Origin: a virus
Taxonomy: Duplodnaviria; Heunggongvirae; Uroviricota; Caudoviricetes
IMG/VR virus record: IMGVR_UViG_2802429219_000008
Strand: one strand, 5' to 3'
Length of the DNA stretch: 21,425 bases
Positions 7,669-9,932 of the stretch are shown here, one piece after another (within the stretch, counting starts at the first letter, position 1; each line of letters begins with the position of its first letter). The notes below the pieces were generated by a model. It ran no database searches. It was not told the origin of the DNA and saw nothing but the letters and a program-made list of their open reading frames with translations. Both the position numbers and the translations under genes were made by a program.

Positions 7669-8085
7669 GTGGCAAAAGTTTTTACACAAGAAGAGCGGGA
7701 AAAAATTAAAGGGCAGGTGGTGGAACTCGTGCGCCAGAGCGGTCGTGAGACGCTACGGCAACTGGAAGCTAAAACAGGTGCGACAAGATATCTGATGAGC
7801 GTTCTTGCCAGAGAGCTGGTTGCCAGTGGCGATGTATATAACTCTGGCTACGGGTTATTCCCGTCTGAACAGGCACGTAAGGACTGGATAAAGGCCCGCA
7901 AAAAGATGTCGAAAGCAGCAGTGAAAAAAAAGAGCGACCCGGACCTGGTTTATTCATTACCAGACGGAGAAATACGCCGCTACGACAGGCGTCTGAACAT
8001 AATCTGTCGCGAGTGCCGGAAGAGCGAAGTTATGCAGCGTGTACTGGCGTTCTATCAGGGATATTTTCAGGAGGTGATGGAGTGA
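7669..8085 (+). CDS. hypothetical protein (138 aa)
   Basis: ORF track 7669..8085(+). GTG start with AGGGGGA upstream. Protein-like composition with a possible HTH (RETLRQLEAKTGATRYLMSVLARE). Confidence 0.5.
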   Translation: MAKVFTQEEREKIKGQVVELVRQSGRETLRQLEAKTGATRYLMSVLARELVASGDVYNSGYGLFPSEQARKDWIKARKKMSKAAVKKKSDPDLVYSLPDGEIRRYDRRLNIICRECRKSEVMQRVLAFYQGYFQEVME

Positions 8086-8387
8086 GGGTGAGAGTTTATA
8101 TTGCCGGTCCAATGACCGGGTATAAAAATTTCAACCGTGAGGCGTTTCACAAGGCGGAAGAGGAACTGAAACGGGAAGGGCATACCGTCTTAAGCCCGGC
8201 AGTACTTCCGGACGGACTGACACAGCCACACTACATGGATATTTGTATGGCAATGATTCGTTGTGTGGATGCGATTTACATGCTGAAAGGCTGGCAGCGG
8301 TCAGCAGGTGCTAAGGCAGAACTGGCACTGGCGGAGAAGCTGGGGCATGTGGTTATTTTCCAGGAGGCAACCAGTGAGCAAAATTAA
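8082..8387 (+). CDS. DUF4406-like (nucleoside 2-deoxyribosyltransferase-like fold) protein
   Basis: Frame of ORF 8013..8387. Proposed GTG start at 8082, eight nt after AGGAGG (8069-8074) and overlapping the upstream stop. VRVYIAGPMTGYKNFNREAFHKAEEELKREGHTVLSP matches the DUF4406 signature as I recall it. Confidence 0.55.
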   Translation: MRVRVYIAGPMTGYKNFNREAFHKAEEELKREGHTVLSPAVLPDGLTQPHYMDICMAMIRCVDAIYMLKGWQRSAGAKAELALAEKLGHVVIFQEATSEQN

Positions 8388-8700
8388 TTATCAGACGCTA
8401 TTGTTGACTTTGTCGAGAGTAAATTCGGGCAAGACAAGGATATGAAACCGGATAACGTATGTCATGGAGATGCTACTGAAATAATTAGCCATCATTGGGA
8501 GTATGGTTCGCACTACATGAATTAATAGGGGGGAGCTATACACGCAATGTGATGTGAATGTTAATTTGTTAGTGCTGCTTGTTGACCTTATGTTGGTTTT
8601 TGTGGTTGTTTGTAGGTGTCCTGCGATTGGTATTGTGTTTATTTTTTGTGGGGTGAAATGATGATGTATTGTTTTTCTTACTAAGAAATAAGGAATTATA

Positions 8701-9039
8701 ATGGGAATTATTGAAAAGATATTAGCGTTCCAGATAGATCACGATCTATTTTCTTCAGAAGAAGATAAAGTACTGGGTATTGCACGACTGGCTGTTGATA
8801 ATGGTTATAATCACTTAACAGACAGGCAAAAAAATGTGTTGGCGAGTCATTTAACCAAACGTTGTACGGGACATACAGATCTTGGAGGTCATCACAACGA
8901 TTGTAATAGAGAATTATCAGGCGAAAATTTATTAAATGCATACGAGCAATGCGATGATCCCGATGCCTTGCAATGTGAATCTTGCATAAGCGAAGCCTGT
9001 TACGAACGGCATGTGTGGGAGAAAAATTACTCAGACTGA
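8701..9039 (+). CDS. hypothetical Cys/His-rich protein (112 aa) in an AT-rich island
   Basis: ORF track 8701..9039(+). AAGGA Shine-Dalgarno (aataaggaattataATG). Preceded by ~300 bp of AT/GT-rich non-coding DNA. C-terminal half has clustered Cys/His (CTGHTDLGGHHNDC...CESCISEAC). No family recognised. Confidence 0.5.
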   Translation: MGIIEKILAFQIDHDLFSSEEDKVLGIARLAVDNGYNHLTDRQKNVLASHLTKRCTGHTDLGGHHNDCNRELSGENLLNAYEQCDDPDALQCESCISEACYERHVWEKNYSD

Positions 9040-9308
9040 TGGTGCAACTTCATCATCAATGAAATGCAGGCAGATGTGCACATGCTACTTAAAGGACAAA
9101 ATGTTTTGCGGGAAAAGGGAAGTTAAGTAGAATTGCTGCGGGTGCTTGAGGCTATCTGCCTCGGGCATGAACACCAAAGGCAGATAGAGAAAAGCCCCAG
9201 TTAACATTACGCGTCCTGCAAGACGCTTAACATTAATCTGAGGCCAATTTCATGCTAGACACATGTAGGTTAGCCTCTTACGTGCCGGAAGGCAAGGAGA
9301 AGCAGGCT

Positions 9309-9464
9309 ATGAAGCAGCAAAAGGCGATGTTAATCGCCCTGATCGTCATCTGTTTAACCGTCATAGTGACGGCACTGGTAACGAGGAAAGACCTCTGCGA
9401 GGTACGAATCCGAACCGGCCAGACGGAGGTCGCTGTCTTCACAGCTTACGAACCTGAGGAGTAA
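9309..9464 (+). CDS. hokD: Hok-family type I toxin HokD (51 aa); in-frame mok-like extension begins at 9252
   Basis: MKQQKAMLIALIVICLTVIVTALVTRKDLCEVRIRTGQTEVAVFTAYEPEE is recognised as Hok/Gef family. The 70-aa ORF 9252..9464 (MLDTCRLASYVPEGKEKQA + Hok) parallels MokC/HokC. Upstream leader holds a 9-bp inverted repeat (ctatctgcc / ggcagatag). Confidence 0.85.
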   Translation: MKQQKAMLIALIVICLTVIVTALVTRKDLCEVRIRTGQTEVAVFTAYEPEE

Positions 9465-9532
9465 GAGACCCGGCGAGGGAGAAATCCCTCGCCACCTCTG
9501 ATGTGGCAGGCATCCTCAACGCACCCGCACTT

Positions 9533-9564
9533 AACCCGCTTCGGCGGGTTTTTGTTTTTATTTT
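9533..9564 (+). terminator. Rho-independent terminator downstream of hokD
   Basis: CCCGC-TTCG-GCGGG hairpin followed by TTTTTGTTTTTATTTT. A second perfect 9-bp stem with GAAA loop (GGCGAGGGA gaaa TCCCTCGCC, 9472-9493) lies just 3' of the hokD stop. Confidence 0.6.
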
Positions 9565-9680
9565 CAACGCGTTTGAAGTTCTGGACGGTGCCGGAATAGA
9601 ATCAAAAATACTTAAGTAGCGCGCAGGGATAAGAGGGATGGTCCCTTAAAGGGGAGAGCTAATTATCCGGAAGGATTCTG

Positions 9681-9932
9681 ATGATGAACATCGAAGAACT
9701 GCGTAAAATTTTTTGTGAAGATGGCCTCTATGCTGTGTGCGTTGAAAATGGAAATCTTGTTAGTCATTACCGCATTATGTGTTTGCGAAAGAATGGGGCT
9801 GCGTTAATTAATTTTGTGGATGGTCGAGTGACAGACGGATTTATCTTGCGCGAAGGTGAGTTTGTCACTTCATTACAGGCACTGAAAGAGATCGGAATAA
9901 AAGCAGGCTTTTCAGCTTTTGCAGAAGAATAA
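9681..9932 (+). CDS. rem: Rem-like small protein (83 aa)
   Basis: ORF track 9681..9932(+). GGAAGGA Shine-Dalgarno. Recalled as the Qin rem product; position between hokD and ydfU matches Qin. Confidence 0.6.
   Translation: MMNIEELRKIFCEDGLYAVCVENGNLVSHYRIMCLRKNGAALINFVDGRVTDGFILREGEFVTSLQALKEIGIKAGFSAFAEE

Follow-up and report, generated by a model that had tools for sequence, protein, structure and literature searches.

The DNA analyzed here, a stretch of 21,425 nucleotides (nt) recorded as IMGVR_UViG_2802429219_000008 and called the window below (all positions refer to the whole stretch), is a Qin-like lambdoid prophage of Escherichia coli that carries, immediately upstream of its hok/sok locus, an AT-rich island with a single intact gene. 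This gene, ORF112 (8701..9039, + strand), is an open reading frame (ORF) with an ATG start and encodes an acidic protein of 112 amino acids (aa) with four conserved cysteines, a member of the PHROG 12178 family. We consider it somewhat better than an even bet (probability of about 0.55) that the island is a moron-type cargo cassette whose product is an acidic, zinc-stabilized protein binder that functions in conflict between mobile elements and their hosts and acts without hokD.

The ORF112 family and its predicted structure

Judged from sequence conservation, ORF112 is a real, conserved gene, far beyond chance expectation, because a profile search across 5.8 billion proteins retrieved 148 protein clusters with the same cysteines and motifs, all about 112 aa long. 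The named clusters are nearly all gammaproteobacterial (Enterobacterales, Vibrio, Aeromonas, Shewanella, Halomonas, Pseudomonas and Acinetobacter). When 1.84 billion representatives at 50% identity were scanned exhaustively with HMMER, only 68 relatives emerged which, apart from one spurious hit, are stand-alone proteins or fragments of no more than about 120 aa. Domain fusions were considered as a clue to function and none was found, the sole long match (P0172, 1031 aa) being a spurious hit to a low-complexity repeat protein. By tblastn, homologs at 46–52% identity were detected on 36 plasmids, 32 of which are conjugative (IncX1, IncU and others), and a homolog is present in one isolated phage, Halomonas phage vB_HmeY_H4907; overall, homologs were found at 40–73% identity.

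The initial annotation, made from the letters of the window, described a 112-aa ORF with a good Shine-Dalgarno (SD) sequence, and both features are confirmed: AAGGA (8691..8695, +, read from the sequence) is located 5 nt upstream of the ATG, purine-rich SD-like sequences occur upstream of most homologs, and the motifs singled out in the product, CTGHTDLGGHHNDC and CESCISEAC, are present in the translation. ORF112 matches phrog_12178 with E = 1.9 × 10−27 (96 bits, residues 4–109 on profile positions 3–108 of 111); this is its own family, a full-length match devoid of functional annotation that gives the gene a name but no explanation. Existing catalogs list it as an unannotated PHROG and, in RefSeq, as a 'hypothetical protein', and a literature search on protein accessions, the PHROG identifier and motif strings found no mention of it in the library searched. 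No confident match to a characterized family was found in Pfam, NCBIfam, PADLOC, the PDB (by sequence or by fold) or BFVD; Pfam was searched with its ArdA and ArdC-N models included, and the only hit in PADLOC-DB v2, to GajA (E = 0.016, 12 bits), is not significant and amounts to noise.

In an alignment of 56 sequences, M1, G26, A31, L39, C55, G57, G62, A80, C92 and C95 are invariant, and the positions that are at least 90% conserved include I27, A28, Q43, D60, P61, H65, N66 and C68. The Cys/His cluster originally proposed for the C-terminal half is, therefore, real in part: the C-x12-C...C-x2-C core and a T-D-P-G-G-[HY]-H-N loop are conserved, whereas C84, C100 and H64 vary across the alignment. 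The loop is absent from remote family members, which do retain all four cysteines. Proteins of the family are acidic (median isoelectric point, pI, 4.5; range 4.1–5.4), and ORF112 itself is a protein of about 12.7 kDa with a pI of 4.87, 21 D+E vs. 10 K+R, a grand average of hydropathy of −0.66 and no evident hydrophobic stretch. The window copy carries a private substitution, P61L (codon 61, 8881–8883), in the near-invariant D-P-G-G loop, where all other copies examined, including that of the near-identical prophage of E. coli EF7-18-51 (hereafter L001), have proline.

AlphaFold2, run with the 56-sequence alignment, yielded a model with a predicted local distance difference test (pLDDT) score of 92.5 and a predicted template modeling (pTM) score of 0.80, which consists of helices 3–13, 22–34 and 41–50, strands 52–54 and 71–73, and helices 74–83 and 93–110. 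The first three helices correspond to the helical N-terminal half anticipated in the initial annotation. In the model, C55 follows strand 52–54, C68 precedes strand 71–73, and C92 and C95 are located at the first turn of helix 93–110, an arrangement in which the four cysteines most likely form a treble-clef-type structural zinc site. The original idea of a metal-binding protein is plausible to this extent, with C55, C92 and C95 invariant and C68 nearly so, zinc itself being a prediction. Foldseek searches of the PDB and BFVD detected no structural relative at E ≤ 1 × 10−3, and a sequence-profile search of the PDB returned only a sub-threshold LIM match (E = 1.7). As modeled, then, the family is uncharacterized and combines a confident prediction with the absence of a detectable fold relative. 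Treble-clef protein-contact modules (LIM, PHD and papillomavirus E6) all score below significance and are a lead rather than an established relationship; moreover, ORF112 differs from them in that 12 residues separate its first two cysteines, which form no CxxC knuckle. The P2 Ogr/Delta activators and the TraR/DksA C4 proteins are, like ORF112, small four-cysteine proteins borne by phages or plasmids. ORF112 showed no profile or fold match to the DksA/TraR C4 zinc finger, the Ogr/Delta zinc finger or HNH (His-Me finger) domains.

Mobility, composition and genomic context

Among 5426 complete E. coli genomes, the island is present in 5, always just upstream of hokD; three of the copies reside in Qin-like prophages (99.8% identity, the value also observed over the island for L001) and two in a different lambdoid prophage (92.5%). 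Sibling prophages of the Qin-like type, which match 86–89% of the window at about 97% identity and are 99% identical just to the right of the slot, lack the island and carry instead a truncated methyltransferase and QueH (epoxyqueuosine reductase), a cargo with a nucleic-acid modification flavor, which in E. coli FHI_NMBU_03 (L067) spans 7693–8645 and takes the place of window positions 8087–9114. Pairwise blastn with this closest sibling delimits the exchanged segment to 8087–9114, homology ending at 8086 and resuming at 9115; relative to other lambdoid prophages, the junctions fall at 8363–8399 on the left and at 9094–9098 on the right. Other occupants of the slot include genes for phrog_660 proteins (138–158 aa) and Ea22-like, DUF4752, DUF7167 and DUF551 genes. 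These varied occupants, together with the mapped junctions, indicate, at the level of sequence comparison, that the slot is a modular exchange site with the hok promoter as its right boundary.

The base composition of the island deviates from that of its surroundings, in agreement with the initial description of an AT-rich island: GC content dips to 0.34–0.38 over 8400–8850, compared to about 0.50 on both sides, and ORF112 has a GC content of 0.389 and a third-codon-position GC content (GC3) of 0.31, compared to a GC3 of 0.53–0.55 for the DUF977, DUF4406 and hokD genes. The low GC content tracks the gene family. Homolog loci were fetched from species-representative genomes (25) and from IMG/VR (26), ORFs were called and neighbors were clustered, 53 loci being compared in total; the GC content of the ORF is below that of the flanks in 48 of these, and the upstream 150 nt are AT-rich in 49. 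Separate horizontal acquisition, proposed earlier on the grounds of composition, is thus supported by the low GC content of the whole family, by the rarity of the island among complete genomes and by its absence from near-identical siblings.

No partner conserved across the 53 loci was found, and the neighbor clusters vary by locus. A hok/mok cluster is adjacent in only three loci, those of the window, L001 and E. coli NJS001 (L002), all in E. coli lambdoid prophages, so that the functional tie to hokD envisaged in the initial annotation is not borne out and the link between the two genes is positional only. In about 20 siphophage contigs from IMG/VR, the gene lies antisense between endolysin/Rz-spanin genes and the gene for the small terminase subunit or a phage metallopeptidase; in a P2-like element, it is found between tail-fiber-assembly genes and tail genes (gpU-type tail protein, tape measure). 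IncX1 plasmids carry it between a Tn3/TEM-1 insertion and AbiD, and an IncU plasmid between a gene for a large helix-turn-helix (HTH) protein and transfer genes. The closest homolog outside E. coli (73% identity) belongs to a conjugative element of Citrobacter (C. freundii and related contigs, L061–L063), with an AAA_15/AAA_21 ATPase cluster that includes three unannotated genes (223, 189 and 860 aa) on one side, and an orphan N6/N4 methyltransferase and a coupling protein on the other; in one variant, an ArdC-N gene is located directly upstream. Among 112 chromosomal and plasmid neighbors, the commonest Pfam matches are phage integrase (5), resolvase (3) and transposases, and defense genes are scattered among the neighbors (MADS, type I restriction-modification, BovA and AbiD).

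In a subgroup from Enterobacter and Salmonella (L006–L008, L064 and L065), the homolog is always paired with a divergent 209-aa gene for which no Pfam, PADLOC or PHROG match was found, with differing outer flanks, and the two may form a two-gene mobile unit; in L008, the homolog is followed by a bidirectional terminator. The 209-aa gene was considered as a family-wide partner and rejected, given that it accompanies the homolog only in this subgroup. Nor does ORF112 resemble a two-gene type II toxin-antitoxin operon of the relBE kind, there being no match in Pfam or NCBIfam and no conserved partner.

Layout of the island and the adjacent hok/sok locus

In the L001 prophage, the annotated genes are integrase, excisionase, exonuclease, ydfD, dicB, ydfA, dicA and dicC, then a YdaT-family gene, a gene for a 339-aa replication-region protein, DUF977, DUF4406, a 'hypothetical protein' that is ORF112, hokD, rem and ydfU. 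The slot in the window is flanked on the left by the DUF4406 gene (8085..8387, +; Pfam PF14359, E = 1.9 × 10−37), which is itself part of the segment swapped relative to the closest sibling. The DUF977 gene of the window (7669–8085; Ren-like, phrog_142) is intact; its counterpart in L001 (8283–8698) is annotated as frameshifted, and the L001 prophage also contains IS3 and IS1 insertions downstream.

The end of the DUF4406 gene is overlapped by the start of a remnant of a phrog_8773 gene (8375..8525, +), recognized from translations and from DNA alignment to the intact copy in L002 (5876–6127; PHROG E = 1.1 × 10−13). The remnant keeps the first 11 codons from GTG 8375 (VSKINYQTLLL), after which an internal deletion and a frameshift intervene, and its last 42 codons and stop are intact at 8399–8525. 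The intact gene, of 83 aa, opens the NJS001 island, which is 92.5% identical, and is found intact only in islands of this type. A toxin-antitoxin-like dependency between the 83-aa gene and ORF112 was considered and rejected: the former is intact only in L002 and disrupted in both the window and L001, yet ORF112 of L001 has the wild-type P61. Consequently, of the roughly 300 bp that the initial annotation took to be non-coding, only 8526–8700 (175 bp) is truly intergenic.

This AT-rich, T/G-rich non-coding leader (8526..8700, +; 175 nt, GC 0.354) does not contain the repeated tgtttgt/ttgtgg tracts reported previously and is merely rich in T and G, with a GC skew of +0.44 and an AT skew of −0.17 over the T/G-rich stretch. 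Tandem Repeats Finder detected no tandem repeats in the region, a repeat search gave only short two-copy chance matches, and TGTTTGT has a single occurrence in the region and 6 across the whole window, where 4.9 are expected. The last 60 nt or so of the leader (8640–8700) are identical in the otherwise diverged NJS001 copy. A search for structured RNA in the leader gave no Rfam match and an unremarkable fold (z = −1.25); folding of 8630–8715 produced a weak A-U/G-U-rich hairpin (8638..8692, +; −14.6 kcal/mol, z = −2.5, with 3 of 200 shuffled sequences folding equally well), the 3′ arm of which extends to the first bases of the SD and which could serve in translational control or have arisen by chance. 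A very hydrophobic 35-aa ORF in the leader (8554–8661; MNVNLLVLLVDLMLVFVVVCRCPAIGIVFIFCGVK) was considered as a hidden type I toxin and rejected, its frame being broken by indels in NJS001; it probably reflects no more than base composition, because T/G-rich DNA by itself gives Val, Leu, Phe and Cys codons.

On the 3′ side of ORF112, a spacer (9040..9097, +) in which a terminator scan detected no intrinsic terminator reaches the right recombination junction of the island. Beyond it, and outside the island, lies a complete hok/sok locus (9098..9550, +), with the leader and sok region at 9140–9314, mokD at 9252–9464, hokD at 9310–9464 and a terminator at 9533–9550. The Rfam sok model (RF01794) matches 9140–9314 over its full length (117 bits), and homology to 4321 of the 5426 complete E. 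coli genomes sets in at about 9094–9098. Hence 9098–9251, initially counted as part of the island, is the promoter and leader of this widely shared locus; the placement of mokD and hokD directly 3′ of ORF112 agrees with both the ORF list and the L001 annotation. A match to isrK at 9473–9554, below threshold (25.7 bits vs. a gathering score of 50, E = 0.0056), overlaps the 3′ end of hok and the strong terminator at 9533–9550. Further downstream, rem (9600–9932) is a second AT-rich patch (GC 0.40, GC3 0.345) and also looks compositionally foreign beside hokD and ydfU.

In the Qin prophage of E. coli K-12, hokD is preceded by relB-relE, as stated in the initial annotation. The supposed identity of the two slots is only approximate: relBE and the island occupy roughly the same region, but relBE of K-12 is joined to the locus within the hok leader, whereas the island of the window ends about 200 bp further to the left. 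K-12 is homologous to the window only from about 15 nt upstream of the hokD ATG onward (L057 7270–7350, compared with window 9098–9309), and relE of K-12 abuts a 5′-truncated hok locus that lacks mok, sok and the hok promoter, whereas the locus in the window is complete. ORF112 resembles relBE in being a close 5′ neighbor of hokD within a prophage of the Qin type, but shares with it neither sequence nor architectural similarity, being a single gene without a partner.

Possible roles of the ORF112 protein

Morons are described in 'The moron comes of age' (PMC3594210) as independent transcription units that spread among phage genomes by horizontal transfer. Of the three hallmarks of a moron as defined there, which include transcription signals of its own, two are observed for ORF112, presence or absence between related genomes and deviant base composition. 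Like phage morons, it is a single gene of deviant composition that is present in one and absent from another of near-identical prophages, and in other phages the family gene lies antisense between lysis and terminase genes. It differs from morons in being co-oriented with the early operon and in replacing other cargo rather than being a pure insertion.

The cassette occupies an exchangeable slot between accessory genes of the replication module (DUF977 and DUF4406) and hok/sok, and under the favored interpretation its one intact gene encodes a cytoplasmic acidic protein in which three N-terminal helices are predicted to pack on a four-cysteine module, with C55 and C68 flanking the conserved loop between the two short strands and C92-x-x-C95 opening the last helix. 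The family, which is small and mostly gammaproteobacterial, always takes the form of one gene by itself on a mobile element, be it a temperate phage, a conjugative plasmid or an integrative element, and the protein would act alone, binding and modulating another protein rather than DNA. Binding to another protein is the most plausible mode of action because this is a small, soluble, acidic domain without an enzymatic motif, a partner gene or a basic surface, and carriage by three classes of mobile elements, often amid anti-restriction and defense cargo, points to a role in conflict, probably counter-defense during entry or exclusion of competitors, and not via hokD. The anti-defense function that was one of the suggestions of the initial annotation is possible.

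Several observations weigh against this interpretation. A scan for sigma-70 consensus promoters on the + strand and for convincing terminators found none at 8300–9250, the counts not exceeding those in shuffled sequences, and ORF112 may simply be transcribed as a passenger of the early rightward operon. The antisense orientation in L032–L054 implies a separate promoter, and here, too, the consensus scan detected none; scans of the window and three homolog loci gave neither promoters nor terminators above chance. Zinc binding is deduced solely from the cysteine pattern and the secondary structure, the antisense placement in late operons fits expression from the lysogen and exclusion equally well, and P61L together with the decay of the prophage suggests that the window copy may be impaired.

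The closest contender, a lysogen-expressed exclusion or defense factor that would bar superinfecting phages or incoming plasmids by binding a protein of the host or of the invader, is unlikely but has some support, given that the position between the lysis and packaging operons in the antisense contigs is the classic one for lysogen-expressed morons, and that AbiD adjoins the gene on IncX1 plasmids, with MADS, type I restriction-modification and BovA among the neighbors elsewhere. Speaking against such a factor, PADLOC gave no hit above noise, the window gene runs in the same direction as the early lytic operon, and a soluble protein of 112 aa without an enzymatic motif would be an unusual stand-alone defense. 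We lean slightly toward counter-defense over exclusion because of the enrichment on conjugative plasmids (32 of 36) and the ArdC-N and orphan-methyltransferase neighbors, both of which fit counter-defense better, and because of the early-operon position in the window. That the window copy is a passenger in decay, with hardly any function at present or none at all, is distinctly unlikely: it does carry leucine at a position where at least 90% of the family, L001 included, has proline, its upstream companion gene is deleted and frameshifted, and in near-identical prophages the DUF977 gene is frameshifted and IS3 and IS1 have inserted, but the ORF is full length, its SD is intact, and the reading frame is preserved in the three near-identical copies as well as in the copy at 92.5% identity.

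The other two roles raised in the initial annotation, those of a regulator and of a modulator of the neighboring toxin, fare worse. A small transcription regulator, binding DNA through an HTH-like domain of three N-terminal helices and stabilized or dimerized by the zinc module, is improbable in view of the uniformly acidic charge of the family (pI 4.1–5.4) and the absence of any conserved target. Modulation of HokD toxicity or of mok/sok regulation is highly improbable; it draws on the placement of the gene 212 nt upstream of mokD in all 5 island genomes, across two prophage backgrounds, against which stand the near-absence of hok from homolog loci (3 of 53, all E. coli lambdoid), the occurrence of complete hok/sok without ORF112 in more than 4300 genomes, and the many unrelated genes that alternatively fill the slot upstream of hok.

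A bolder version of the favored interpretation, toward which we are tentative and would put the odds clearly against, is that the ORF112 family represents the founder of an undescribed zinc-stabilized fold and a stand-alone, broad-host counter-defense or exclusion factor, traded among temperate phages, conjugative plasmids and integrative elements of mostly gammaproteobacterial hosts, that binds and neutralizes a conserved protein of the host or of a competitor.

As a kind, the AT-rich island is ordinary, one among the many cargo cassettes that replace one another in this slot of lambdoid prophages, and the neighboring hok/sok is a complete, ordinary locus that is not functionally coupled to ORF112. 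What the island brings to light is a compact, confidently foldable, cysteine-anchored orphan that is carried alone by three types of mobile elements across several gammaproteobacterial orders. Small orphans of this type have repeatedly proved to be inhibitors of host defenses or of competing elements, and a family this small (68 representatives) with a protein of only 112 aa would be a cheap candidate for screens for such inhibitors and for structure determination.

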